Shown here in pieces: positions 5,768 to 58,984 of a DNA stretch of 64,000 nt. This DNA is from Squalus acanthias (lineage: Eukaryota), in NCBI GenBank assembly GCA_030390025.1, contig CM059432.1, forward strand, positions 66,032,001 through 66,096,000. The letters run 5' to 3'. Positions within the stretch are counted from its first letter, which is position 1. Each line of letters begins with the position of its first letter. A program made the translations under genes and the position numbers. The notes beneath the pieces were generated by a model. That model made no database searches. It worked only from the letters and a program-made list of their open reading frames with translations, and was not told where the DNA came from.

Positions 5768-6742
5768 ATAGTTCCTCCATATCTACCCTATCAAATCCTT
5801 TTACCATTTTAAACACCTCGATCAGATCATCCTTCAATCTTCTATACTCAAGGGAATACAAGCCAAGTTTATGCAACCTGTCCTCAGGATTTAACCCTCC
5901 AAGCCCCGTTATCATTCTGGTGAATCTGCACTGCACCCCTCCAAGGCCAATATATCCTTCCTGATGTGCAGTGCCCAAACTGAACGCAGCACTCTAGATG
6001 CGGTCTGACCAAGGCTCTATCCAAATGAAGCATAACTTCCTCCCCTTTGTATTCCAGCCCCATTGAGATAAAGGCCAACATTCCATTAGCCGTTTTGATT
6101 GCTTTTTGTGCCTATCCACTAGCTTTTAATGATTTGTGTACTTGGACTCCCAAATCTCTTTGCACCTCCAATTTCTAATCTCTCACCATTAGGAAATACA
6201 CCGATTTATCTTTCTTAGGTACCTCACACTTCCCCACATTGAACTCCATTTACCATATATTTGCCCACTCACTTAATCTGTCTATGTCCCTTTCTAACTT
6301 TCTACTCCCTTCTACACAACTTTTTCTGCCTCCTAATTTAGTGTCATCTGCAAACTTGGATGCACATCTCTGTTCCATCATATAAATTATTATGTATGAG
6401 GAAAAGCTGAGGACCTAGTACAGATCCTTGCGGAGCACCACTTGTCACATCCAGCTAATCAGAGTACATTCCCTTTATCCCTACTCTCTGTTTCCTGCCT
6501 CTCAAGCAATTACCAACACATGTCACAGGTTACCTCCAATTCCGTGCACTCTCATTTTTGCTAATAATATCTTCTGTGGAAACTTAACAAATGGATTCTG
6601 TCCATATATACAATATACATAGACAGTCCCCTATCCACTATGCTAGCGACATCTTCAATAAAATTGAATTTATTAGTCAGACATGACCTACCCATCACAA
6701 ATCCAGGCTGTCTCTTTTTGACCATGTCATACTTATCACTCT

Positions 6743-8990: not shown

Positions 8991-11596
8991 GCGTCTGTAG
9001 CTTCCTGGTTTTCCTCTCTGTCCCTTCTTAAATAATAGAGTGATTATTGCCATTTTCCAATCCAAAGGCAGAATTCCTGAATCTAGAGAAACTACACATC
9101 TGCAATTTCCTCACCTCATCTTTTTAATACTCTGGGGTGGAAACCAACAGATCCTGTAGATTTGTCTATCTTACGTCCCATTATTTTCCCCATTGCGATT
9201 TTTTATTCATGTTAAGTCCACAAAATTCCTCCCCTTGACTTATTTTTAAGTTTTCTTTTACCACTGTGAAAATGGTAACAAAGTTTTCATTTAACACGTC
9301 TGACATTTCCTTGTTGTCCACTATAGTCTCACCTGCATCTGTCTTTAATGGGCCCACATTTCTCTTTACCACTCTCTTTCTCTTAATATATTTATAAAGC
9401 TACAGAATGAACTACTCTGAATAGATATCTCTAAGGTGAAAAATCCAAGCTAACACTAGGGATATGCTACAAACCCCAAGTTAGCATAACAAGGAAGATA
9501 AAATGCTCTATGAAGAAATAGAAAGGGTATCTGAGAACAGGAAAGTTTGGGAAAGAACAGGAATGTGAGATTTCAATCCAACAAATATAAACCGGGAAAA
9601 CTCAAGTGTTTTAGAATCAGATGTGGTAAATGTAATACTTGACAGTTTGATGATCAAGTATTTCAAGGAAGCAACAAACTGCACTGCTCATCTTGACTTG
9701 GTATTTGTAAATGATCCAGATAATATACAGGAAATGGAAGTTGTAATAACTTGGGGAACAGCAGCCACAGATTGATAAAGTTTAAGATGATCTGGAAGTC
9801 CGAAATAGCTATGACCAAGAGCCATATATATATAACTTTAAAAAGGCTAAATTCAATAAAATAAGGGAACAACTAAAGCAAATAGATAGGCAAAGGTTGT
9901 TCAACATTTCAGTAGACGACAAGTAAACACTGTTAAAGTTATAATGCTAAGCATGCAGGACAAATACATACTGAAAATCAACAAGCTGAGCCTGAACAAA
10001 TGTGACTGAAAATGGATCAACAAACTAATTAAAAGTGATATAAAGAGGAAAACTGACCTCCATAAATCCTGCAGAAAGGAAAGGGAAGAGGTTCACTGGG
10101 ATAAATATAAGAAAATGCTGAAATTGTCCTTTTTTGTCTACTCTGTATTTTTGGATTACTCTATACCCCTGAATATTCCATTCCATTCCATCCTCGCTGT
10201 TTAGCAACATTTCTGATATTTCTACCACATCAGTTTTCTATTGTCACAACATTTGTCACTCTGGCATTTTATTCCTAATGCTTCTATCATTCATATATAT
10301 ACATCTCATTATAGATTTACCTCATTTCAAGCCCCCTAGTGTCTTCCTATTCCTGGTCTCTGGTTCATGTGTGTCTCTCTGGAATTCTGTGGTCTTACCC
10401 ACCTATTGACTACCTTCTCCCCTGTGATCTGTCTCATCTGGGATTCCGATTCCTTCCTGCTACCTTTCCACCTATCTAATTTAAATTATTCTCAATTGCT
10501 ACCTCAACTTTCTTCACAAGTCTCTTTGTTCCCATTTGGTTTAAGTGTAGCCATCTCTCATGTACCAGTTTTTTGTGTTCTGAAAATTTCCCATTATTAA
10601 TGAAGGTAGTATAATTACTTTCAGATTACATTGCCAGCCGCTCATTAACATCCTCAATTTTCACTGATCTGTGGTTACTCATTTACCAAGTCTAATAATA
10701 GCCATTTGCTCTTAACTATCTGCTCTTTTATGTCTCTTCTTATAAGTTCCTACACCTTCCTCTCTACAGCCATAACCCTTTCTTTAAGCTTGTTGATCAA
10801 TAGGCAGTTTTTGCATCTTTTAGTCTATCTACTAAACCTAGCTTTTTTGTTTGTAAACATACCACAGCAAACGTATCTAATGGCTTCCATCTTAATTTCA
10901 CTTCTCTCTTTTGTTCTACATTAAATCTAACTTTGCTCATTCATCCCTTTTTTGTTTGATTTACATGTGTGCCTCCTATTTCTTTGCCTCTTTCATTTAT
11001 CCCCTATTTAATTAATCTTCAGCACTATTCCAGCACTAGTAAAGAAAACATTGTCAGCTTTATTTGCTTTATTTGTATTCCAACCCCACTTTAGATTATT
11101 TTCTGCCACAGTGTTATCTTTCTATTTGGCAACCATCAACATGTGCCAATTCCGTTTTTGGACAAGCAGCTAGGAACTGCACTGGACTGATTCATGATCC
11201 AATTTCCCCTCATACTTATTTGTTCCATTTGGTTTCAGCTAAACTGGTTGAGTCCATCACTGTATGAGTAACTACAGGGGAGAACCCAGTCCATACCGTT
11301 CCTCAGTGTTGCATGCAAGTGCATTGTGATGCTACACCACTTAGCGCCACTCTATTTTGACTTGCCAGATGCTTCATTTACTTATATCAATTCAGTGGAA
11401 CCTCTACATACAATTAAAAATACAATAAGTGAAGGAGGAACTAGTTGGGCCTAAAAGCCTCCTTCATTTGTATTTTGTTTTGTAATCTTTATGAAATTAC
11501 TTACCACAAGGAAATTAATGAGGAATGAAAGCCTAGTGGAAGTACATTCTGTTGAAAGTAATCACCCACTCCCAGTTCTGTCCTATAAAGATATAT

Positions 11597-17467: not shown

Positions 17468-19405
17468 TAAAAAAAAAATTGTTCTGGGATGTGGGCGTCG
17501 CTGGCAAGGACAGCATTTATTGCCCATCCCTAATTGCCCTTGGTGGTGGTGAGCCGCCTTCTTGAACCGCTGCAGTCCGTGTGCTGAAGGTATTCCCACA
17601 ATACTGTTAGGGAAGGAGTTGCAGGATTTTGACCCACCAACAATAAAGGAACAGCGATATATTTCTAAGTCAGGATGGTGTGTGACTTGCAGGGCAACTT
17701 GGAGGTGATGGTGATTCCATGCACCTGCTGCACTTGTTCTTCTAGGTGGTAGAGGTCGCGGGTTTGGGAGGTGCTGTCGAAGAAGCCTTGGCGAGTTGCT
17801 GCATCTTGTAGATGGAACACAATGCAGTCACATTGCGCCAGTGGTGCAGGGAGTGAATGTTTAAGGTGGTGGATGGGGTGCCAATCAAGTGGGCTGCTTT
17901 GTCCTGGATGGTGTTGGACTTCTTGAGTGTTGTTGGAGCTGCACTCATCCAGGCAAGTGGAGAGTATTCCATCACACTCCTTACTTGTGCCTTGTTGATG
18001 GTGGAAAGTCTTTGGGGATTCAGGAGGTGAGATACTCGCCACAGAATACCGAGCCTCTGACCTGCTCTTGTAGCCACTGTATTTATGTGGCTGGTCCAGT
18101 TAAGTTTCTGGTCAATGGTAACCTCCAGGATGTTGATGGTGGGGGAATCATCGATGGTTATGCCATTGAATGTCAAGGGGCGGTGGTTAGCTTCTCACTT
18201 GTTGTTGGAGATAGTCATTGCCTAGCACTTGTGTGGCATAAATGTTACTTGCCACTTATCAGCCCAAGCCTGAATGTCGTACAGGTCTTGTTGCATGCGG
18301 GCATGGACCACTTCATTATCGGAGGAATTGCGAATGGAACTGAACACTGTGCAGCCATCAGCGAACATCTCCACTTCTGCTCTTATGATGGAGGGAAGGT
18401 CATTGATGAAGCAGCTGAAGATGGTTGGGCCTAGGGCACTGCCCTGAGGAACTCCTGCAGTGATGTCCTGGGGCTGAGATGATTGACCTCCAACAACCAG
18501 AACCATCTTCCTTTGTGCTAGGTATGACTCCAGCCAGTGGAGAGTTTTGCCCCTGATTCCCATTGACTTCAGTTTTACTAGGGCTCCTTGATGCCACACT
18601 CGGTCAAATGCTGCCTTGATGTCAAGAGCAGTCAGTCTCACCTCACCTCTGGAATTCAGCCCTTTTGTCCAAGTTTGGACCAAGGCTGTAATGAGGTCTG
18701 GAGCCGAGTAATCCTGGCGGAACCTGAACTGAGCATTGGTGAGCAGGTTATTGGTGAGTAAGTGCCACTTGATAGCAATTTCGACGACACTTTCCATCAC
18801 TTTGCTGATGATTGAGAGTAGGCTGGTGGGGCTCTAATTAGCTGGATTGGATTTGTCCTGCTTTTTGTGGACAGGACATACCTGGGCAGTTTTCCACATT
18901 GTCGGATAGATGCCAGTGTTGTAGCTGTACTGGAACAGCTTTGCTAGAGGCGTGGCTAGTTCTGGAGCTCAAGTCTTCAGGTCGACAGCCAGAATGTTGT
19001 CGGGACCCACAGCCTTTGTTCTATCCAGTGCGCTCAGCCATTTCTTGATATCATGTGGAGTGAATCGAATTGGCTGATGACTAGTTTCTGTGATGGTGGG
19101 GTCCTCAGGAGGAGGCCGAGATAGATCATCCACTCGGCACTTCTGGTTGAAGATGGTTGCAAATGCTTCAGCCTTGTCTTTTGCACTCACGTGCTGGGCT
19201 CTGCCATCATTGAGGATGGGGATATTCATGGAGCCTCCCAGGGCCACTCCCTCCTGACTGTATACTACTGTGCCACCACCTCTGGTGGGTCTGTCCTGCT
19301 CGTGGGGCAGGACATACCCAGGGATGATGATGGAGGAGTCTGGGACATTGGCTGAAAGTTATGATTCTGTGAGTATGACTATGTCAGGCTGTTGCTTGTC
19401 TAGTC
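17468..19405 (-). mobile_element. CR1-group LINE (second family), RT to 3' end
   Basis: ALDIKAAFDRVWH, GVPQGSALGP, MFAD and QVRSVMEYS; A-rich tail at about 17470. Confidence 0.9.
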
Positions 19406-19547
19406 TGTTTTATCACACTTCTGTGAAGCGCCTTGGGACGTTTTACTATGTTAGAACACAGGAAATAGGAGCAGGAGTAGGCCATATGCCCCCTTGAGCC
19501 TGCTGTTAAAGGCTCTATATAAATACAAGTTGTTGTTGTCGCCACCC

Positions 19548-20300
19548 ATGAGTCAAGTGTCAGTCTAACCACCACCCCATGACATTCAGCGGCATTTCCA
19601 TCGCCTGAATCCCCCACCATCAACATCCTGGGGGGTCACCATTGACCAGAAACTTAACTGGACCAGCCACATAAATACTGTGGCAACAGGAGCAGATCAG
19701 AGGCTAGGTATTCTGCGGCGAGTGTTTCACCTTCTGACTCCCCAAAGCCTTTCCACCATCTACAAGGCACAAGTAAGGAGTGTGATGGACTACTCTCCAC
19801 TTGCCTGAATGAGTGCAGCTCCAACAACACACAAGAAGCTCGACACCATCCAGGACAAAGCAGTCCGCTTGATTGACACCCCATCCACCAACTTAAACAT
19901 TCACTCCCTCCACCACCGGTGTACCGTGGCTGCAGTGTGTACCATCTACAAGATGCACTGCAGCAACTCGCCAAGGCTTCTTTGGCAGCACCTCCCAAAC
20001 CCGCGAACTCTTCCACCTAGAAGGACAAGGGCAGCAGGCGCATGGGAACACCACCACCTCCAAATTCCCCTCCAAGTCACACATCATCCGGACTTAGAAG
20101 TATATCGCCGATCCTTCATTGTTGCTGTGTCAAAATCCTGGAACTCCCTCCCTAACAGCACTGTGGGAATACCTTCACCACTCGGACTGCAGCAGTTCAA
20201 CAAAGCGGCTCACCACCACCTTCTCAAGGGCAATTAGAGATAGGCAATAAATGCTGGCCTTGCTAGCAATGCCCACATCCCATAAATGAATAAAAAAAAG
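19548..20300 (+). mobile_element. 3' fragment of the same LINE family in opposite orientation
   Basis: MSAAPTTHKKLDTIQDKA...SWNSLP; ends gaataaaaaaaag. Confidence 0.9.
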
Positions 20301-38656: not shown

Positions 38657-39671
38657 CTGTACTGATAATTTGGAATGTCCTCTTCAGCCATTTTGAATTG
38701 CTTAAATGGTTCACACTTTACAAAGAGGTCTTACATACTATTTGCCTTCATTTAAGATGTGGGTCCACATGAATCATTGTCTGCATATTAACAGTTACTG
38801 TACTTAAAGTAATTCATTGTATCTGAAATGCTTTGAAATGTTTTTGAGAGATAAGGTGCTATATAAATGCAAGATTTTGCATGTGGCTGTGTTCTGAGCT
38901 GATCAAATGGTGTACCTTATTGGTTCTCACAGCAATAACTGAAACAAGCTCTCTTGCGGGGACAGGCCAGTGCAAGAATCCGAATTGATGTCAATGTGTT
39001 AAATGCCTTTTCCGTGCGCAACAGGAAAGCAAGAAACTGAGTAACCTACAATTGTGTCCAAATTTGCCTTTGTATACAACGCATACTGCAAAAGTATACT
39101 TAACCATGTGCTAATAAGAGTGATACCATGCCCATGTGCTAATTGGCTGATAGAAGGAAATAATCTTTTGGTGAAAAGTAAATGGATGAAACAAGCTAGA
39201 AGATACAATTTTCAGGTTAAAAGTGACCTGTATGATAGAACAACTGAATAATGAACTGTTTAGTACACTGGTCTGTGCTGATATTAAGACCATGCTCTAA
39301 CTCCTGAAGCTACAATTTCATTGGCTGGCACTACTAGTCTTCTTATTAAAACATATGTTGCTACATTCTGCTCATTAAGGTAGATGCCTTTAAACTGACT
39401 GCCAAAATATACTGTCAATTTATTCTTTTTTAATTTTGCTCGGAAGTGGTTTCTTATATTAGCAATAAATTTAGAAAATAAAAATAAATAAATGTTGGAA
39501 TTAACAGCTGATTAAATATAGCTGGCGTTATATCCATTCTTATTGGCTAGCATAATTTATTGGGGTTATTATTCGCCAAAGATCTGTTCTTTTTCTAGTA
39601 CTTTAGGGATGTAAGTCTTTTCATGATAGAGTTTGCAATCAATTCCATGCTCTACAATGTCCTATACATCC

Positions 39672-40648
39672 AATCTATATCAATTATTTGGATGAGGGGA
39701 CCAAATGTAATATATCCAAGATTATTAATGATACAAAGCTAGGTGGGAATGTAAGTTGTGAGGAGGATGCAAAGAAGCTGCAAGCGGCTATAGACAGGTT
39801 AAGCAAGTGGGCAAGAACATGGCAAATGGAATATATTGTGGAGAAATGTGAAGTTATCCACTTTGGCAGGAAAAATAGAAAAGCAGAGTATTTTTTAAAT
39901 GGTGAGAGATTGGGAAATGTTGGTGTTCAGAGGGACCTGGGTGTCCTTGTACACGAATCGCTGAAAGTTAATATGCAGGCACAGCAAGCAATTAGGAAAG
40001 CAAATGGTATGTTGGCCTTTATTACAAAAGGATTTGAGTATAAGAGTAAAGATGTCTTACTGCAATTATATAGGGCCCTGGTGAGACTACACCTGGAGTA
40101 TTGTATACAGTTTTGGTCTCCTTACCTAAGGAAGGATATACTTGCCATAGAGAGAATGCAACGAAGGTTCACCAGACTGATCCCTGGGATGGGGGGATTT
40201 TCCTATGAGGAGAGATTGAGGCCTATATTCTCTAGAGTTTAGAAGAATGAGAGGTAATGTAATTGAAACATACAAAATTCTTACAGGGCTTGACAGGGTA
40301 GATGCAGGGAGGATGTTTCCCCTGGCTGGGATGTCTAGAACCTGGGGACACAGTCTCAGAATAAGGGGTTGGCCATTTAGGACTGAGATGAGGAGCAATT
40401 TCTTCACTCAGAGGGTGGTGAATCTTTGGAATTCTCTACCCCAGAGGGCAATGGATGCTCAGTCGTTGAGAATATTCAAGGCAGAGATCGATAGATTTTT
40501 GGATATTAAGGGAATCAAGGGTTATGGGGATAGTGCAGGAAAGTGAGATGAGTTAGAAGATCAGCCATGATCTTATTGAATGGCGGAGTAGGCTCATAAG
40601 GGCCAAATGGCCTACTCCTGCTCCTATTTCTTATGTTCTTCTTATGTT
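39672..40648 (+). mobile_element. CR1 LINE, 5'-truncated
   Basis: WQMEY, KCEVIHFG and LVRLHLEYCIQFWSP; tail ttcttatg. Confidence 0.92.
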
Positions 40649-40914
40649 CAAATATATTGACTTTTGCATTAGAAATAAATTCAAAAAATTAGGGGCACTA
40701 ATTAAAATGGAGGAAGATAATCTTGTAGGCCTGATGAAACTTGTCTTCAGTCAGATCAAGACTAAGGACTAAGGGGATGAAAATTCCCAGGTCTTCTGCT
40801 GCACTCCCATCACAATTCCAGTGGGACTGTGGCAGAAGGGACAGAAAACAGACCGGGATCCAGATACGCCAGATCCTGGCATTACATTGGGAAATTGGAA
40901 GGGGTGGAGGCAAC

Positions 40915-41460
40915 TCGGTTCACTCCAGGTGATATCAAAAAATGGTTGAGTGCACTGAATAAAGCAAAGGCTACGAAACCTGAAAACATTCCGACGGTAG
41001 TGCTGGAGACCTGTGCACGAGAGCTAGCTGCTCCCCTAGCCAAGATGTTCCATTAGAGTTATGACACTGGCATCTACCCAACAACGTGGAAGATTGCTCA
41101 GGTATGTCCTATCCCCCAAATACAGGATAAATCTAACCTGGCTAAATACTGCTCTATTAACCTCCTCCCAATCATCAGTAAAGTGATGGAAAGAATCATC
41201 AATAGTACCATCAAACGACACCTACTTACCAGTAACCTGCTCATCAATGTTCAGTTTGGGTTCTGACAGAACCACTCAGTTACAGTCCTCATTGCAGCCT
41301 TAATCCAGACATGGAAACAAGAACTGAATGCCAGGGGTGAAGTGAGAGTAGCTGCCCTCAACATCAGGGCAACACTCACCAAGTGTGGCACCAAGGAGTC
41401 TTAGCAAAACTGACATCAATGGGAAAATCCTTCATTGGGTGGAGTTATACCTGAAAGAAA
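40915..41460 (+). mobile_element. RT fragment of the second CR1-group family
   Basis: RFTPGDIKKWLSAL...NIPTVVLETCARELAAPL, homologous to 18550-19070. Confidence 0.8.
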
Positions 41461-41649
41461 GGACCCTATTCCCATCCCAAGTTAAATTCAGGGCTTAACA
41501 GACAGAAGAATTTAATTCAAATGCATTAAGCACTTGTCTGCTAATATTGGCAGCAGTGATTTCAAACTTGTAACCATTTTTAGTGCAATAGAACAACAGT
41601 CTGGCGTTACAACTTTGTTGTCCTATGAGATATGGTCAGTGTCCATTAC

Positions 41650-44130: not shown

Positions 44131-45046
44131 GGGGGTAGAGTTGCCACTTTAGGCGCAATCAGTGATTCTTGCGCAAACTGCGCCCAAAATTATTTTGAAA
44201 AATGTTTCTCCCCCCGAGTTCCAGCTCAAACTCATTTGCATATCACCGAACGGTAACGCTGCTACGAACCAGCGCAATCGGGCAACGCTTTAAAACATAA
44301 TTATTTTTTGATTTTGCTTTAAAAAATATTCCTTGATATATTTAAGAGTGGTAAGTTAGATTAATACAGCTAGAAATGGGCTTATCACAAAAAATAAGCA
44401 TTTAAAATCACAGTGCCAATCCACCACCTTTGAGTAACCTGATATTAAATTACTAAAAATGTCGTTTAAAAAATATTAAACTATTTTCTAGTTAGATTGG
44501 GATACAGTAGTCAGTTCCCTAGTAAATATTCAAGAATGAGTTAGATATGTTTCTTAAAGCTAAAGGTATCAAGGGATATGGGGAGAAGGCAGGTACAGGG
44601 TACTGAGTTTGGATGATCAGCCATGATCTCATCGAATGGTGGAGCAGGCTCGAGGGGCCGAATGGCCTACTCCTGCTCCTATCTTCTATGTTTCTATGTT
44701 TCTAAATTAAAAAAAAATCATTCCAAACCTTTCAAAACGTACCAATTAGTGTCCTTGCGCCCTAAAGTTCCAGTTTAATTTTTGGAGCCTCCTCGAAGAT
44801 GTGAAAACGAGCTCAATTAGCAGAAACTCCCAATGGTGATTAATTCACCCTGAAGGTGTGGCCAGTTTTGTGGGCGGGGCCTGCTTCTAGCACAATGTTT
44901 TAAAAACTGGCGAAAAGATCGCGGCAACTCGAGTTGCGCCGAATGCAATTTGCACTTAAAATTCCGCAATCTTTTCCGCCAGTTACGCCAATATCGGGGG
45001 GGATTGCACCAAAAAATCCAGCACAATCAAATGGAAATTCCAGGCC
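44131..45046. mobile_element. Harbinger-type MITE (copy of 23490-24220) with a nested CR1 3' fragment at about 44528-44703
   Basis: Collinear with 23490-24220. The insert is flanked by taaat on both sides and ends in a ttctatg tail. Confidence 0.85.
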
Positions 45047-45305
45047 TGTATCTTTAAATACTCTCGAATTAAAATAATTTTCCACAGAACAGAGGATAAC
45101 ATATTAAAAACATGCATTTCTTTTTGATTATTGCATCAAATACTCAACAATAATTAAATAATGGGTAATCAAGACGTATCAAGGTAGAGGCAAAGAACAT
45201 CTCAACATTTTTTTAAATGTGGTGGCTAAAATATTTTATCGTTATTAATATATTGGGATCACTTTTATGACAACGACATTATTCTATGTTGCAGTTTTGA
45301 TTTTC

Positions 45306-46290
45306 ATAGAATCATAGAATGGTTACAGCACGGAAGGCCATTCAGCCCGTTGAACCCGTGCCGGCTCTCTGCAAGAGCACCTCAGCTAGTCCCACTCCCC
45401 CGCCCTTTCACCATAGCCCTGCAAATTTCTTTCCTTCAAATACTTATTCAACTCCCTTTTGAAAGATAAGATTGAGTCTGCCTCTACCATCCTTTCAGGC
45501 AGTGCATTCCAGATCTTAACCACTCGCTGCGTAAAAAAGTTTTTTCTTACGTCGCCTTTGCTTCTTCTGCCGATCACCTTAAATCTGTGTCCTCTGGTTC
45601 TCGACCCTTCTGCCAATGGGAACAGTTTCCCTCTATCTACTCTGTCGAGACTCCTCATGATTTTGAACACATCTATCAAATCTCCTCTCAATCTTCTCTG
45701 CTCCAAGGAGAACAACCCCAGCTTATAGAGTCTTAGGCTGGAATTTAGCCAGTGCTCAGGGGGCGGGTTTGGAGGTGGGACATCCGGCAAAATCGCAAAG
45801 ATTGCCAGCGGGCAGGAAACCCGCTGTCAACCCGCCTCCAATCAATCTTCCCAAGTGTCGGGTCCCCGATTTGCGCATGGGCCTGAAACCTAGCGGCGGG
45901 AAGAAGATTATAGCCACTCAACTGCCTGTTAAAGGTTGTTAACAGGCAGTTAACAGGCTCTTTTGCAATTTTGACAATTCTACTTCGGGCTTCCTGACAT
46001 CCGGACACCATGCCAGGTAAGTATGGTGTGTTGTGAGTCTGCTATAATGTTTCTGCATTGATGACAGCTGCAGAAGTGGTATGAAGGATTCAATGGTGCA
46101 CTGGTGAGTTTCAGAGGCAAGATGAAGTGTAATTGGCAATGGCAGAATGATTGACAGCTGCCGGTGCCACCACTATTCTCTGTTTCCTGTCACTGAGCAA
46201 ATTCCGTATCCATGCTGCCACTGTCCCTTTTATTCCATGGGCTTCAACTTTGCTGGCAAGCCTATTATGTGGCACTTTGTCAAACGCCTT
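45306..46290 (-). mobile_element. CR1 LINE (same subfamily as 1-3083) interrupted by a one-ended Harbinger fragment at 45736-46197
   Basis: GLFSLEQRRLRGDLI...WNALP at 45386-45725; AHGIKGTVAAWIRN at 46200-46245; TTA|ggctggaattt at 45736. Confidence 0.88.
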
Positions 46291-46313
46291 TTATGAGCTA
46301 TTTTACAGAACTA

Positions 46314-51354: not shown

Positions 51355-54300
51355 AATAGATAGAACAGTACAGCACAGTACAGGCCCTTCGGCCCTCGAT
51401 GTTGTGCCGAGCATTGTCCGAGACCAAGATCAAGCTATCACACTCCCTATCACTCTGGTGTGCTCCATGTGCTTATCCAATAACCGCTTGAAAGTTCCTA
51501 AAGTGTCCGACTCCACTATCACAGCAGGCAGTCCATTCCACACCCCAACCACTCTCTGAGTAAAGAATCTACCTCGGACATCCCTTCTATATCTCCCCCC
51601 ATGCACCTTATAGTTATGCCCCCTTGTAACAGCTGCCTCTACCCGAGGAAATAGTCTCTGAACATCCACTCTATCTATCCCCCTCATCATCTTATAAACC
51701 TCTATTAAGTCGCCTCTCATCCTCCTCCGCTCTAAAGAGAAAAGCCCCAACTCCCTCAATCTTTCCTCATAAGACCTCCCCCCCAAACCAGGCAGCATCC
51801 TGGTAAATCTCCTTTGCACTCTTTCCAATGCTTCCTACGTCCTTCCTATAGTGAGGTGACCAGAACTGCACACAATATTCCAAATGTGGTCTCACCAAGG
51901 TCCTGTACAGTTGCAGCATAACCTCACGGTTCTTAAACTCAAACCCTCTGTTAATAAACGCCAACACACCATAGGCCTTCTTTACTGCTCTATCCACTTG
52001 AGTGGCAACCTTCAGAGATCTGTGGATATGAACCCCCAGATCCCTCTGCTCCTCCACGTTCCTCAGAACCCTGCCGTTGACCCTGTAATCCTTATTCAAA
52101 TTTGCCCTACCAAAATGAATCACCTCGCACTTATCAGGGTTAAATTCCATCTGCCATTTTTCGGCCCAGCTCTGCATCCTATCAATGTCTCTTTGCAGCC
52201 TACAACTGCCCTCCACCTCATCCACTACTCCACCAATCTTGGTGTCATCAGCAAATTTACTGATCCACCCTTCAGTCCCCTCCTCCAAGTCATTGATAAA
52301 AATCACAAACAGCAGAGGACCCAGCACCGACCCCTGTGGCACACCGCTGGTAACTGGTCTCCAGTCCGAAAATGTTCCATCCACCACCACCCTCTGCCTT
52401 CTATGAGATAGCCAGTTACTTATCCAATCGGCCAAATTTCCCTCTATCCCACAACTCCTTACTTTCTTCATGAGACGACCATGGGGAACCTTATCAAACG
52501 CCTTACTAAAATCCATGTATACGACATCAACTGCTCTACCTTCATCTACACACTTAGTTACCTCCTCAAAGAATTCAATCAAATTTGTTAGGCAAGACTT
52601 ACCCTTCACGAATCCGTGTTGACTATCCCTGATTAAGTTGCCCCTTTCCAAATGGTCATAAATCCTATCCCTCAGGACCTTTTCCATTATCTTACCAACC
52701 ACCGAAGTAAGACTAACCGGCCTATAATTACCAGGGTCATTCCTATTTCCTTTCTTGAAGAGAGGAACAACATTCGCCACTCTCCAGTCCTCTGGCACCA
52801 TCCCCGTGGACAGTGAGGACCCAAAGATCAAAGCCAGAGGCTCTGCAATCTCCTCCCTTGCCTCCCAAAGAATCCTAGGATATATCCCATCTGGCCCAGG
52901 GGACTTATCGACCCTCAGGTTCTTCAAAATTGCTAAAACATCTTCCCTCAGAACATCTACCACCTCCAGCCTATCCACCTTTATCACACTCTCATCCTCA
53001 AGAACATGGCCCCTCTCCTCGGTGAACACTGACGAAAAGTATTCATTCATCACCTCTCCTATCTCTTCTGACTCCATGCACAAGTTCCCACTACTGTCCT
53101 TGACCGGCCCTACCCTCACCCTGGTCATTCTTTTATTTCTCACATAAGAGTAAAAAGCCTTGGGGTTTTTCTTGATCCGACCCGCCAAGGACTTCTCATG
53201 CCCCCTCCTAGCTCTCCTAAGCTCTTTTTTTAGCTCATTCCTTGCTACCTTGTACCCCTCAATCGACCCAACTGAACCTTGTTTTCTCATCCTTACATAC
53301 GCTTCCTTTTTCCTCTTGACTAGACATTCAACCTCTTTTGTGAACCATGGTTCTCTCACTCGGCCATTTCCTCCCTGCCTGACAGGGACATACCTATCAA
53401 GGACACGCAGTAATTGCTCCATGAAAAAGCTCCACTTTTCGTTTGTGCCTTTCCCTGATAGTTTCTGTTCCCATCTTATACTCCCTAATTCTTGCCTAAT
53501 CGCATCATAATTACCCCTCCCCCAATTTTAAGCCCTGCCCTGCCGTATGGCCCTATCCCTCTCCATTGTAATAGTGAAAGTTACCGAATTGTGGTCACTA
53601 TCTCCAAAGTGCTCTCCCACATACAAATCAAACACTTGGCCCGGTTCATTACCCAGTACCAAATCCAACGTGGCCCCACCTCTTGTCGGCCTATCCACAT
53701 ATTGTGTCAGGAAACCCTCCTGCACACACTGTGCAAAAACTATCCCATCCGAACTGTTTGACCTATAAAGGTTCCAATCAATATTTGGAAAGTTGAAGTC
53801 ACCCATGACAACTACTCTGTGACCTCCACACCTATTCATAATCTGCTTTGCAATTTCTTCCTCCACATCTTTATTACTATTTGGGGGCCTGTAGAAAACT
53901 CCTAACAACGTGACCGCTCCTTTCCTATTTCTAACTTCAGCCCATATTACCTCAGATGGCAGATCCCCCTCGAACTGCCTTTCTGCCGCTGTTAAACTAT
54001 CCTTGATTAACAATGCCACTCCTCCACCTTTCTTACCAACTTCCCTACTCTTACTGAAACATCTATACCCCGGAACTTCCAACAACCATTCCTGTCCCTG
54101 TTCTAACCATGTCTCCGTAATGGCCACCACATCGTAGTCCCAAGTACCAATCCACGCTCCAAGTTCTCCTACCTTATTCCGGATGCTCCTTGCATTGAAG
54201 TAGACACACTTCAAGCCATCTTCCTGTCTGCCGGTACATTCCTGCGACCTTGATACCCTCCTCAGTACCTCCCTACACTCACCACTGGCTCGTGGACTAC

Positions 54301-54393
54301 AGCCCTTTTTCCCATCCCCCTGACAAATTAGTTTAAACCCCCCCGAAGAGCCGTAGCAAATTTCCCTCCCAGGATATTGGTGCCCCTCTGGTT
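51355..54393 (-). mobile_element. Young CR1 LINE: ORF1 3' end plus near-intact ORF2
   Basis: Endonuclease (NARSI, ITETW, MGDFN, SDH) and RT (GVPQGSVLGP, FADD) share one frame apart from a TAA at 53528-53530 and one frameshift near 51835. Confidence 0.97.
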
Positions 54394-55651
54394 TGAGAGT
54401 CAGCTAAACGCTGCTTTATAAAGAAGGGGCTGGTAAATCAGGACTCTCTATTTAAAATTTAGATATGATACTGGCTCCAAATAACAAATGTAACTTGTGA
54501 CCTCATTGAAACTTCTTCTGCTATCTTGCTATGGTGAATTTTGATTATTCTGCCAGTAACTTTGAAGTCAGCATTATACTCCATATTGTCAACTTAGATT
54601 CCCTGTTTCATGGGTAACACGCCACCTTTTTAAGTTACTGTCTCCTCTTTTCCTTTGAGTCTCTTCAACTACACACCATCCACAACTGATAGGCCAGTGA
54701 GGGATAATCTGCAACCTGGTGTCTTTCAGCACTACTCTGTTACTACTGATAATGAGGAGATGTGCAAGAGCTGACTGTGAATATTCATTATCTGATTTTC
54801 CATCTCTTCATGAAGAGAATTCCTGGCCTCTGCTCAGTACTTCCCTAAAGTGATAGGGTTGAAATAATGAACTGAACAGTGTGAAGGAATATGGGGCATC
54901 AATTCTCACCCCACCACTCAATAGCACTGTTCATTATTACACCACTGAATATTCCCTGAGTTTTTAACAGCTAAATTCCTACCTTCGCTAGCCCTTCCCC
55001 AGTAGTACTTTGCAAATTTCTTTAAATCACTGCTCTGCTGATCATCCGATGCTCACATTCAGAAAGCAAACATTGTGAATGTCTTGAGTGAAAAGCAATG
55101 CACATAAGGTATTGTCCAATAAATGAAATGATGAATTGAATGCACTGCCATGATACTATGTGTTGGAGCACCAACACATGAAGTCGTGAACACTTGGGAC
55201 AGCTAAAATAAATCTCCATCTTGTCGAGTTCCCAGTCTTAGTCACATTGGGGTGCGACAGCAATGAACAGAGACAAAGCTCTTCTCAATAGAAATCAGAG
55301 GGAGAGCCATCTCCAGGCTGCTTTCACACACCTCACTAACCCAATATACTCACATAATTCGACAAGCAGGACACCAGCCCACCCTCTCAATGCAGCAGGT
55401 TTGTTTCACAGGGAGATTAGGAGGGAGATTTTGAGGCCTCCCACCTGGCAAAACTGGGTGTTAGTGCCCCAAATTTGTGGGGAAGAACTTACTGCCCCAT
55501 TCACACCATCACTGTGCCCATCGCCGTTTTGACAGGGTTCTTTGAACAGCTGGCCGCCTGAAGCAAGTGCACAGCTAATTTAGGTATTTAAATTGGAGGC
55601 CTACGATGTGACTAGGACCCAAAGCCATTTTAGGACTATACTGGGCAAAGC

Positions 55652-57005
55652 ATAAGAACATAAGAAATAGGAGCAGGAGTCGGCCATTCGGCCCCTCCAG
55701 CCTGCTCCGCCATTCAATAAGATCATGGCTGATCTGATCTTGGCCTCAACTCCACTTTCTCGCCCACTCCCCATAACCCTTAACTCCCCTGTAGCTCAAA
55801 TATCTGTCTATCTCCGCCTTGAATATATTCAATGACTCCGCCTCCACAGCTCTCTGGGGTCGAGAATTCCAAAAATTCACGACCCTCTGAGAGAAGAAAT
55901 TCCTCCTCATCTCCGTTTTAAATGGGCGACCCCTTATTCTGGAACTATGCCCCCTAGTTCTAGATTCCCCCACGAGGGGAAACATCCTCCCTGCATCTAC
56001 CCTGTCAAGCCCCCTCAGAATCTTATATGTTTCAATAAGATCACCTCTCATTCTTCTAAACTCCAATGAGTATAGGCCCAATCTGCTCAACCTTTCTTCA
56101 TAAGACACCCCCTTCATCTCAGGAATCAACCTCGTGAACCTTCTCTGAACTGCCTCCAATGTAAAGTATATTCCTCCTTAAATAAGGAGACCAAAACTGC
56201 ACGCTGTACTCCAGATGTGGTCTCATCAGCGCCCTGTACAGTTATAGCAAGACTTCCCTACTTTTATACTCCATCCCCCTTGTAATAAGGGCCAACATTC
56301 CATTTGCCTTCCTAATTACTTGCTGTACCTGCATGCTAACTTTTTGTGTTTAATGTACGAGGGCCCCCAGATCCCTCGGTACTGCAGCATTTTGTAGTCT
56401 CTCTCCATTTAAATAATAATTAGCTTTTTTATTCTTCCTACCAAAGTGGATAACCTCACATTTTCCTACATTATACTCCATCTGCCAATTTTTTGCCCAC
56501 TCACTTAACCTAACTATATTCCTTTTCAGACTCTTTTTTGTGTCCTCCTCACAACTTGCTTTCCCACCTATCTTTGTATCATCAGCAAATTTGGCTACAG
56601 TATACTCGGCCCCTTTATCCAAGTCATTAATATAGATTGTAAATAGTTGAGGCCCCAGCACTGATCCCTGTGGCACCCCACTAGTTACAGTTTGCCAACC
56701 TGAAAATGACCCATTTATCCCGACTCTCTGTTTCCTGTTAGCTAGCCAATCCTCTATCCATGCTAATATATTACCCCCAACACCGTGAGCTCTTATCTTG
56801 TGCAGTAACCTTTTATGTGGCACCTTATCGAATGCCTTCTAGAAATCCAAATACACTACATCTACTGGTTCCCCTTTATCCACCCTACTCGTTACATCCT
56901 CAAATAACTCTAGTAAATTTGTCAAACACGATTTCCCTTTCATAAAACCATGTTGACTCTGCTTAATTGTATTATGATTTTCTAAATGTCCTGCTATTAC
57001 TTCCT
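55652..57005 (-). mobile_element. CR1 LINE, 5'-truncated
   Basis: SQHGFMKGKSCLTNL, GVPQGSVLGPQLF and AKFADD; tail (ttcttatg). Confidence 0.93.
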
Positions 57006-57377
57006 TATGCACCTTCCATGCTCCACCCAGTATCAGCTGGCGGTCCAGCTGAAGCAGCGACATGCTCATTTTGTTATGTGTGGCCAGGGGGAGCAGCAGT
57101 GTTCCTCAAAGTTCCCTAAAAATAACCTGGGTCACTGCCACACTGGGTTACCCCTCTTCCCAAGAACTGATATATTCCCCCTTCTCCCAATCCATCTTTT
57201 TCCAGTCCGGTGGCCGGTTAGGTTGCCTGATATAGTCTAATCTGTGATGAGCTAACAGATCTCATCCAGGAAGGCAGAGGAGCCTTTACAGTTGGCCTTA
57301 ATGTCCCTGAGCTAAGGAGGGAAAATCAACCAGTGATCTCCATCTTAGCTGTTGTCCAGTGACTCTTGCCAAAATTT

Positions 57378-58360
57378 GTGTGTGTGTGTAAGTGCGTGAG
57401 TGTGTGCATGTGAATGTGTGTGTGTGTGCAAGTTTGCGTATGAGTGTGTGTCTGCGTGCGACCGTGCGTGTAGGTGTGTGTGTCATTGTTTGTGTGTGTG
57501 CATGCTATTCTTCATGTGTGTGCGTGTGAGTGTGTGTGTGTGCGAGTGTGTGCATGCGTGCGACCATGCGTGTGTGTGCATGTTATTCTTTGTGTATGTG
57601 TGCATGCGAGTGTGTGTGTGCGTGCGAGTGTGTGTGCGTGCATGCATGTGTGTGTGTGAGTGTGTGTGTGCATGCGTGTGTGTTTTGCGTGCATGTATGT
57701 GTGTGTGCGAGTGCGTGTGTGCGTGCGTGTGTGCGTGCAAGTGCGTGTGTGCGTGCGAGTGTGGGTGTGCGTGCGAGTGCGTGTGTGCGTGCGAGTGTGT
57801 GTGTGTGCGAGTGCGTGTTTGCGTGCGAGTGTGTGCGTGCGAGTGCGTGTGTGCGTGCGTGTGTGTGCGTGCGAGTGTGTGTGCGTGCGTGTGTGCGTGC
57901 GAGTGTGTGTGCGTGCGTGTGTGCATGCGAGTGTGTGTGTGCATGCGAGTGTGTGTGTGCGAGCGTGTGTGCGTGCGAGTGTGTGTGTGCATGCGAGTGT
58001 GTGTATGCGTGCGAGTGTGTGTGTGCGTGCGAGTGTGTGTGTGCGTGCGAGTGCGTGTGTGCGTGCGAGTGTGTGTGCGTGCGAGTGTGTGTGCGTGCGA
58101 GTGTGTGTGTGCGTGCGAGTGTGTGTGCGTGCGAGTGTGTGTGCGTGCGAGGGTGTGTGTGTGTGCGTGTGTGTGTGTGCGTGCGAGTGTGTGTGTGCGT
58201 GCGTGCGAGTGTGTGTACGTGCGAGTGTGTGTGTGCGTGCGAGTGTGTGTGTGCGTGCGAGTGTGTGTGTGTGTGCGAGTGTGTGTGTGCGTGCGTGCGT
58301 GTGTGTGCGTGCGAGTGTGTGTGTGCGTGCGAGTGGGTGTGTGCGTGCGAGTGTGTGTGC
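57378..58360. repeat. About 1-kb compound (TG)n/(TGCG)/(TGCGAG) microsatellite
   Basis: Direct reading. It explains the spurious CV/HT-rich ORFs. Confidence 0.97.
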
Positions 58361-58984
58361 ATTTAAGTGTGGCAACGGGGGTAGCTCTGCCAGCCAGCCA
58401 CCCAAAACTGCATGAAGGGAAAATCTACCCCTGGAAGAACAGATAAATGCAGGGAAAAATTAAATGGTAAGATGCCACAAAAACAATTCCATTTAACTAT
58501 ATTTAAGCATACACAAATGATGTAATTATTTATTGTCTATCATTTAAAATTAGGGATAAATTCGCTTAGCTGCTCCCCAAGTCTTTATTCCTCAGGTTTT
58601 TCTCGTAGTGCGACCATTCAGGTGTTAGTGTGGACAAAACTACTTCAGACAATTATATTGGCAGTCATTCATGGTATAACATTTGACACTGTTTTGAAAA
58701 TAATATTGATACAATACTTGTAATATTTCATAGTGTCCACAACAATCTAATGGAGAGGGTTAGATTAATGTACATTATAACAAATAGATCACATATTAGC
58801 TTTAAAAGCATCCTTCAATTTTAAAACATGTGGTTGGAATGTTTGCCTTCGATGGGGTGTAAAACTGTCAGTATCTGATTGGCTGCTCGTTATACACCCT
58901 GCCCGCTTTTCCTTTTCATTGACTGCTTGCTTTGGTACAGTCCCACAGATGCCAGCCTTCCCCCGGTACCTTGCTCTAGTGGTT

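Follow-up and report, generated by a model that had tools for sequence, protein, structure and literature searches.

A conserved slippery heptamer at the ORF1/ORF2 junction of CR1 LINEs, best read as a programmed −1 ribosomal frameshift site

INTRODUCTION

How the second open reading frame (ORF2) of LINE retrotransposons is translated is posed as an open question in passages of PMC5009743, PMC2881922 and PMC3894237, where reinitiation, IRES, bypassing and 2A peptides are discussed. Termination–reinitiation is documented for SART1 and human L1, and reinitiation tolerates near-cognate start codons at a reduced level (sections of PMC2881922, PMC10275272 and PMC3708506). For the Dictyostelium elements TRE5-A and TRE3-A, a figure legend in the review PMC5911963 states that ORF2 needs a −1 frameshift, so that the idea of frameshifting has a precedent among LINEs. 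The abstract of PMC13343379 describes most vertebrate genomes as dominated by elements of the CR1 group.

A proposal of frameshifting in CR1 was not found in full-text searches, which covered few subscription papers; the original chicken and turtle CR1 descriptions of 1997, Kapitonov and Jurka (2003) or Repbase notes may contain an earlier mention of an overlap of the two frames. The word frameshift is absent from the main texts of PMC13343379 and PMC4120745, neither of which describes the signal at the junction. CR1 is not mentioned in the portion of PMC5009743 that was searched, and the passages retrieved from PMC11835228, PMC2734521, PMC5006619, PMC1925062, PMC7175516 and PMC3905857 contain no proposal of CR1 frameshifting.

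Here we analyze a CR1 junction from Squalus acanthias. The window is the whole stretch of 64,000 nucleotides that was analyzed (contig CM059432.1, positions 66,032,001 to 66,096,000), and positions are counted from its first letter.

RESULTS

The junction of an inactivated CR1 copy

The element under study, copy A, is a CR1 LINE on the minus strand at 51356–54393 that comprises the tail of ORF1, the junction and ORF2. ORF2 carries an APE-type endonuclease domain (minus strand, 53528–54214; Pfam PF03372, E 4.7e-23; also PF14529). The remainder of ORF2 holds the reverse transcriptase domain (minus strand, 51430–53527; PF00078, E 2.4e-37), and no protease domain was found in ORF2 with Pfam. This order of endonuclease and reverse transcriptase is characteristic of CR1, as are a tail of short repeats without poly(A) and frequent 5′ truncation, and both traits are seen in copy A. 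The top named protein matches came from cartilaginous fishes.

Some points of the initial annotation had to be corrected. Copy A is a dead copy, with a premature stop at the end of the endonuclease domain (53530–53528) and one frame break near 51834–51767. Of ORF1 only the last 21 codons are present (minus strand, 54331–54393), the element being 5′-truncated at 54393. Loose contig ends fall at this position in four sequencing runs, and they show that the family extends further upstream with a DGLHL motif. The same motif is found upstream of the junction in a second copy of the window (copy B) and in the esterase-type ORF1 of the distant relative L053. The 21-codon remnant gave no Pfam match; it resembles the DGLHL...LN end of the L053 ORF1 and of consensus rows labelled CR1.

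The ORF1 remnant has a putative esterase-type C-terminus with the end G-L-N and reads GGT TTA AAC TAA on the minus strand. The slippery heptamer TTTAAAC (U_UUA_AAC; 54337–54331) stands in X_XXY_YYZ phase with ORF1, and the ORF1 stop UAA (minus strand, 54328–54330) abuts it. The −1 frame starts FKLICQGDG, runs through a linker of 41 codons (minus strand, 54215–54337) without a single stop or ATG and reaches LKCVYFNARS at 54214. Its first ATG is codon 167 (53839), far inside the endonuclease. Heptamer, phase and open −1 frame were thus confirmed as initially described. Copy A therefore shows two traits of a canonical −1 signal, namely an X_XXY_YYZ heptamer whose phase fits the upstream frame and an open downstream −1 frame without a start of its own. 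A G-rich tract, GGGGGAUGGG (minus strand, 54311–54320), lies 10 nt 3′ of the heptamer and is a candidate stimulator. The ATG inside this tract belongs to the ORF1 frame and not to the ORF2 frame, which is a further correction. Among ORF2 proteins in the databases, one begins M-Q-G-D-G, just past the position of the ORF1 stop. The N-terminal methionine of database ORF2 proteins was left out of consideration; gene callers may render other starts as M.

Taken alone, the observation in a single copy is weak. A linker free of stops was matched by 7% of base shuffles, the 10-mer TTTAAACTAA occurred at least once in 21 of 100 shuffles of the window, and any X_XXY_YYZ heptamer begins at 0.5% of the window positions. 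This weakness, together with the common ancestry of the relatives, would suit an explanation by chance or by shared ancestry without function, in which an ancestral junction was inherited without selection. Chance does not account for the recurrence of heptamer and stop at one and the same place in the three endonuclease-bearing CR1 pieces of the window.

Related junctions in the window and in the copy A family

Searching the window by tblastn with the endonuclease gave three CR1 pieces. They belong to divergent families and share a homologous ORF1 tail; in all three, ORF1 ends with TTTAAAY plus a stop (at 54337, 78 and 10485), and none has UAAUG at the junction. Copy B (plus strand, 78–87; U_UUA_AAU followed by UAA) belongs to another CR1 family with about 65% identity in ORF2. 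Its −1 phase is the same as in copy A. The linker has 54 codons with one stop at codon 25, and, going upstream from the heptamer, the −1 frame is closed after 6 codons. Copy C (minus strand, 10476–10485; U_UUA_AAU followed by UAG) represents a third family and is old and decayed. Its −1 frame is open for 49 codons and contains two methionines. Since the endonuclease remnant of copy C lies in another frame, phase is kept in only two of the three window junctions. The linker and the sequence around the heptamer cannot be aligned between the window families, and the heptamer itself is retained.

Variation within the copy A family was analyzed with contigs from four of 24 listed runs (four organisms; runs with a small share were left out), which were aligned to 54150–54410. 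Such contigs show the presence of a variant, never its absence. In these four runs, differences at ≥2% were seen at 54292 and 54344–54360 and none at 54310–54343; the heptamer (54331–54337) likewise had no variant at ≥2%, in contigs that drop rare variants. Loose contig ends at 54309–54315 revealed several different linkers on one common core, and the G-rich tract is the last block common to the subfamilies before the linkers diverge. One contig carries 72 nt in place of 84 nt of linker (−12 nt), and the copy B linker is longer than that of copy A by 39 nt; the frame is kept in both cases. Conservation of the −1 phase, to be expected under frameshifting, therefore stands for these linkers, which differ by multiples of three (41 versus 54 codons; 84 versus 72 nt), but not for copy C.

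The heptamer in vertebrate CR1 consensus sequences

Vertebrate junctions were taken from Table S2 of PMC13343379, of which the first 400 nt of each of about 1,000 consensus rows were used. Counts from these rows refer to heptamer and stop and not to phase, and the rows contain indel errors. Motif searches gave 17 CR1 rows with TTTAAAC and a stop at the end of ORF1 or just before the endonuclease. They come from alligator (2), crocodile (3), bearded dragon (1, with UGA), bullfrog, coelacanth, bowfin and chimaera (1 each), stingray and sawfish (1 each), catshark (2) and dogfish (3). One further row with TTTAAAC and stop, from a teleost, carries the label Crack, and the remaining matches listed were not at junctions. 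UAA, UAG and UGA are all used as stops in the 17 rows, and the codon preceding the leucine encodes G, A, D, L or C. Most vertebrate rows have a G-rich tract within about 10 nt downstream of the heptamer. A bird CR1 junction was not visible within the first 400 nt of the rows. In the searched files of the PMC4316615 supplement, none of three motif matches was at an ORF1 end, and two of them lay in the 3′ part of bird CR1. A protein search with the esterase ORF1 returned mostly bacterial matches and almost no vertebrate ORF1.

Because a motif search is circular, controls were added: reading of whole parts, an upstream anchor and searches for synonymous changes. Six of the 58 parts of the table were read whole, without selection by the motif. 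The end of ORF1 could be seen in 10 CR1 rows, from sharks, rays and crocodilians; TTTAAAC was present in all 10, and a stop was next to it in nine of them; two rows cut inside the site were not counted. The heptamer without an adjacent stop is seen in ScyCan_CR1-13. A search anchored on upstream ORF1 codons recovered the heptamer in four of five cases, the exception being a low-confidence gecko consensus without an intact heptamer. Searches with an altered first base (five matches) and with a synonymous leucine codon (13 matches) gave nothing at a CR1 ORF1 end within these first 400 nt. Synonymous variation, which had been named at the outset as a test of the frameshift idea, is thus not seen at CR1 ORF1 ends in this part of the table. 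TTA makes up only 15% of the leucine codons in ORF2 of copy A.

The stop codons in these rows bear on termination–reinitiation, in which the ribosome would restart on a codon overlapping the stop, as in SART1 and human L1, and would release a free ORF2 protein. A stop–start overlap yields the same −1 phase, and in vertebrates the position of the stop is tied to that of the heptamer. UAAUG, with the AUG in the ORF2 frame, occurs in three of the 17 rows (ScyCan_CR1-1a, SquAca_CR1-17a and -6c), and AUU or GUG stands at the overlap in copy A, HypSab_CR1-6b and CalMil_CR1-1b. The claimed absence of AUG thus holds insofar as no AUG is conserved, but the three UAAUG rows fit reinitiation. In 12 of the 17 rows, however, the overlap codon is neither AUG, AUU nor GUG; AGC, GGU, GGG, GCU, GAU, AGU, GUU, AGG and GUA are seen instead, and copy B has AGU. 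Reinitiation also leaves the invariant slippery heptamer without an explanation. We therefore consider it an unlikely route to ORF2. On this reading the restart codon would be AUG in some families and a near-cognate or arbitrary codon in others, and the heptamer would be a cis-signal for the restart or a relic. Frameshifting and reinitiation could coexist in some families.

The same 5′ regions were inspected with regard to a spliced or internally initiated RNA as the source of ORF2, with the heptamer kept by protein constraint or as an RNA or DNA motif. Donor-like GGTAAG/GGTGAG and pyrimidine-rich, acceptor-like AG sites are found in shark and crocodilian CR1 rows of the table. CTAAT...CAG|G comes just behind the heptamer in copy A, and the 10-mer is also present in two dogfish 5′ regions. 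However, crocodilian rows lack the AG, and the AUG that follows it opens the ORF1 frame, closing again after 18 codons in copy A. The CAG behind the heptamer was consequently rejected as a splice acceptor, since the AG is unconserved and the AUG that comes next does not lie in frame.

Slippery sites in distant relatives

More distant relatives were obtained by scanning metagenomes with an endonuclease alignment; 413 loci were confirmed, of which the best 80 were used. The sequences are likely DNA of animal hosts. No vertebrate-grade relative was among these best 80 (best identity 39%). None of 83 candidates from viral contigs was a relative, and a search of genome contigs gave 12 distant bacterial matches of 25–30% identity. 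Nine of the 80 loci, without a domain start, were dropped; an upstream frame of at least 150 codons was present in 53, which collapsed to 36 at 75% identity. Chosen by the endonuclease alone, these invertebrate-type loci are termed CR1-like (28–39% identical), and the tree covers endonuclease domains only.

ORF2 is in the −1 frame in 47 of the 53 loci and in 33 of the 36 collapsed ones (two are in the same frame and one in +1). In these 33, strict heptamers were counted 13 times in the slip phase versus 1 and 0 in the other two phases, and relaxed heptamers 23 times versus 4 and 6. The relaxed rule, set before the data were seen, also admits GGA, GGU and GUU; G_GAA_AAC is scored under this rule only. 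For the expectation, synonymous ORF1 codons were resampled with the −1 frame held open in the 32 true overlaps. Thirteen strict heptamers in phase compare with 5.9 expected (P 0.0008) and 23 of 32 relaxed ones with 7.9 expected (0 of 200,000 draws), values that overstate the enrichment because the loci share ancestry and are not phylogenetically independent. One strict match, C_CCA_AAA in the poorly sampled locus L010, is probably incidental.

The slippery types are G_GAA_AAC (11), A_AAA_AAC (7), U_UUU_UUA, U_UUA_AAC and G_GGA_AAC. All 21 sites that end in asparagine use AAC, against a background of 38%. L028 (U_UUA_AAC) is sister to L004 (G_GAA_AAC) with 100/100 support and the site is homologous in the alignment, by which one slippery type has been replaced by another. 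No canonical heptamer was found in nine of the 32 overlaps; eight of these have G_GGG_GAA/GAC and one has nothing. An ATG before the endonuclease is absent from 26 of the 32 overlaps and present in six, and L021, L052 and L053 have an ATG within the first codons of the endonuclease. The nucleotides are conserved beyond the need of the protein, as in a canonical −1 signal.

These data also bear on the alternatives. Echinoderm-like relatives have ORF1s that terminate in L-N or S-N, in line with a protein constraint. Under such a constraint, however, synonymous positions would stay free, and different slippery heptamers are found on unrelated ORF1 types (esterase, PHD and unassigned). With the splice sites already discussed, we regard spliced or internally initiated RNA as very improbable. 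With regard to reinitiation, the esterase-ORF1 loci L001, L012 and L053 have the site 0–3 codons before the stop, as in vertebrates. Where ORF1 is of the PHD type or unassigned, it overlaps ORF2 by 58–190 nt, so that the site is far from the stop, which reinitiation would not predict. There are relatives with the heptamer 39–99 nt before the ORF1 stop, where the open −1 frame has its 5′ end, and this distance exceeds the approximately 30 nt within which viral reinitiation is efficient (passage of PMC10275272). Finally, inheritance without function does not agree with flanks and linkers that cannot be aligned between families while the heptamer persists, with four different slippery types recurring in phase or with the enrichment over both other phases. 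Phase enrichment, resampling and the searches for synonymous changes largely refute this explanation, which we consider hardly credible.

Candidate stimulators

The sequence downstream of the heptamer was folded, with pseudoknots outside the models. Copies A and B did not fold better than shuffles (z −0.06 to −1.1), 31 relatives had a mean z of −0.02 with one below −2, and an alignment fold of 13 sites gave no consensus base pairs. The stem-loop of a canonical −1 signal, 5–9 nt downstream, was not found with these models, which cover neither pseudoknots nor G-quadruplexes. Because no stimulatory fold was found, the junction is not a full member of the canonical class, although it would act in the manner of one. 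Some G_GAA_AAC members seemed on inspection to contain a short hairpin, for which the alignment fold gave no support. Likewise, no SART1-type structure by the stop–start site was found on the downstream side in copies A and B.

The G-rich tract keeps its position between elements, and no fold was found for it; its G4Hunter-type score is 1.56 in copy A and 1.12 in copy B. G-quadruplexes stimulate frameshifting in synthetic constructs (passage of PMC5009743). A stop directly after the heptamer is restricted to esterase-ORF1 elements. We regard the adjacent stop and the G-rich tract as candidate stimulators.

DISCUSSION

The junction is a strongly conserved, real feature, and the reading that suits it best is that of a −1 frameshift site in the most common LINE group of vertebrates. 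Heptamer, phase, adjacent stop, AUG-less open −1 frame and their conservation are directly visible in the DNA. Judged by sequence comparison, the CR1 slippery site has been kept from shark to crocodiles and in invertebrates. We consider it probable that this ORF1/ORF2 junction of a CR1 LINE produces ORF2 by programmed −1 frameshifting on U_UUA_AAC. As ORF2 mostly lacks its own start codon, its protein likely comes from a ribosome slip of one base back. The Gag-Pol-like ORF1–ORF2 fusion proposed in the initial annotation gains support here from comparative evidence.

We envisage that the majority of ribosomes would terminate at the UAA after ORF1. In a minority, tRNA-Leu on UUA and tRNA-Asn on AAC would re-pair one base back with UUU and AAA. 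The slipped ribosomes would then traverse the variable hydrophilic linker into the endonuclease, and a little ORF1–linker–endonuclease–reverse transcriptase fusion would be made next to abundant ORF1 protein. Slippage might be modest and proceed without a stem-loop or pseudoknot. More speculatively, the ribosome may be helped to slip by the G-rich tract, which lies about 10 nt downstream, and by termination being slow at the stop next to the heptamer.

Tentatively, and at somewhat less than even odds, we propose an ancient CR1-wide −1 frameshift from invertebrates to amniotes, which would make a Gag-Pol-like fusion and would have outlived swaps of both ORF1 type and heptamer. It would be free of structure, relying in esterase elements on the terminating ribosome and a G-rich, possibly protein-bound tract, and one invertebrate group would use the non-canonical G_GGG_GAA/GAC. 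If true, few programmed frameshifts in animal genomes would be as widespread as the one at the CR1-wide site.

A signal of 7 nt, found from chimaera to crocodile, makes the translation of a LINE ORF2 testable with a short reporter. If the frameshift is real, the CR1 ORF2 protein would be born tethered to the ORF1 protein and its level would thereby be set. Tethering could account for cis-preference and, by way of the esterase, for membrane targeting. The annotation of CR1 ORF2 would change, and the known −1 sites would gain a natural class that is free of structure.

Copy A agrees with canonical vertebrate CR1 (PMC13343379; type IV of PMC4120745) in its endonuclease–reverse transcriptase ORF2, putative esterase-type ORF1 end and short-repeat tail, and its junction matches the shark and ray CR1 rows in the part of Table S2 of PMC13343379 used here. 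Like retroviral gag-pol and coronavirus 1a/1b, CR1 has an in-phase X_XXY_YYZ site with the same favoured heptamers (passage of PMC5009743) and a downstream polymerase frame in −1 without a start; the likely purpose shared with these systems would be the ratio of structural protein to enzyme. Unlike in these systems, no stem-loop or pseudoknot was found in CR1 with the models used, the stop abuts the heptamer, and the host element is a LINE rather than an LTR element or a virus. The CR1 fusion likely stays uncut, because no protease domain was found in ORF2 with Pfam.

SART1 and human L1 resemble CR1 in their bicistronic LINE RNA and in the dependence of ORF2 on ORF1 translation, as far as the cited passages go. 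The UAAUG of SART1 gives the same −1 phase and is the arrangement of the three CR1 rows described above. In contrast to the fusion proposed for CR1, SART1 and L1 make a free ORF2 protein, and SART1 requires a downstream structure (passages of PMC3894237, PMC10275272 and PMC3708506). Most CR1 junctions have a fixed slippery heptamer instead of an AUG. TRE5-A and TRE3-A are, like CR1, APE-type non-LTR elements for which production of ORF2 by −1 frameshifting is stated; unlike CR1, they are amoebozoan and target tRNA genes. The passage on the TRE elements names no slippery site and presents neither a conservation test nor a measurement, whereas the CR1 site is defined and conserved across animals.

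Junction sequences in CR1-like relatives

Among the CR1-like metagenome loci (L-numbers, with the position in the locus after the colon), eight relatives with -1 overlaps carry G_GGG_GAA or G_GGG_GAC at the place where others have a canonical heptamer, the proposed -1 frameshift site between ORF1 and ORF2 (L006:2991, L015:1324, L036:653, L047:1417, L052:1360, L064:722, L066:1439 and L074:420). GGG accounts for 16% of the Gly codons in these ORF1s. The motif is a possible non-canonical slip site.

In the L003-L061 group, a near-invariant GUGGUAGG block was observed approximately 11-19 nt 3' of G_GAA_AAC (13 aligned loci; for example L004:1565-1573). Folding of these 13 loci revealed no consensus stem from the block. 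It may reflect either dual-coding constraint or a candidate stimulator. In L031, which belongs to a sister lineage, PHD-type ORF1 and ORF2 lie in one frame, parted by a single UGA (L031:1724-1730), and an ATG is found 15 codons upstream of the endonuclease. ORF2 may here be expressed by readthrough or reinitiation.

Other LINE sequences in the window

Additional CR1 3' fragments, belonging to several families, were detected at 55655-57015 (minus strand), 39671-40640, 44525-46292 and 5773-6737; all of them stop short of the ORF1/ORF2 junction. The window also contains a LINE-type RT that is more distant, with 30% identity to the dead CR1 copy A. It occupies 17482-20285 and 40908-41463, and its region includes a 730-bp inverted duplicate (17482-18201 versus 19554-20285, 87%). 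Separately, a compound CA/CG microsatellite of about 1 kb (57400-58460) gives rise to spurious long ORFs on both strands.

Comparison with vertebrate consensus sequences

Table S2 of PMC13343379 was considered for the first 400 nt of each row. Within this portion, donor-like GGTAAG/GGTGAG recurs in the 5' regions of shark, ray and crocodilian CR1 rows, followed 3' by pyrimidine-rich AG sites shortly before the ORF1 ATG. These sites suggest a putative conserved 5' UTR intron. In the same portion of AldAff_Crack-2, a teleost row that bears the label Crack, the TTTAAAC heptamer and UAG come right after an ORF1 end of esterase-like type, hinting that the heptamer signal may reach beyond canonical CR1.
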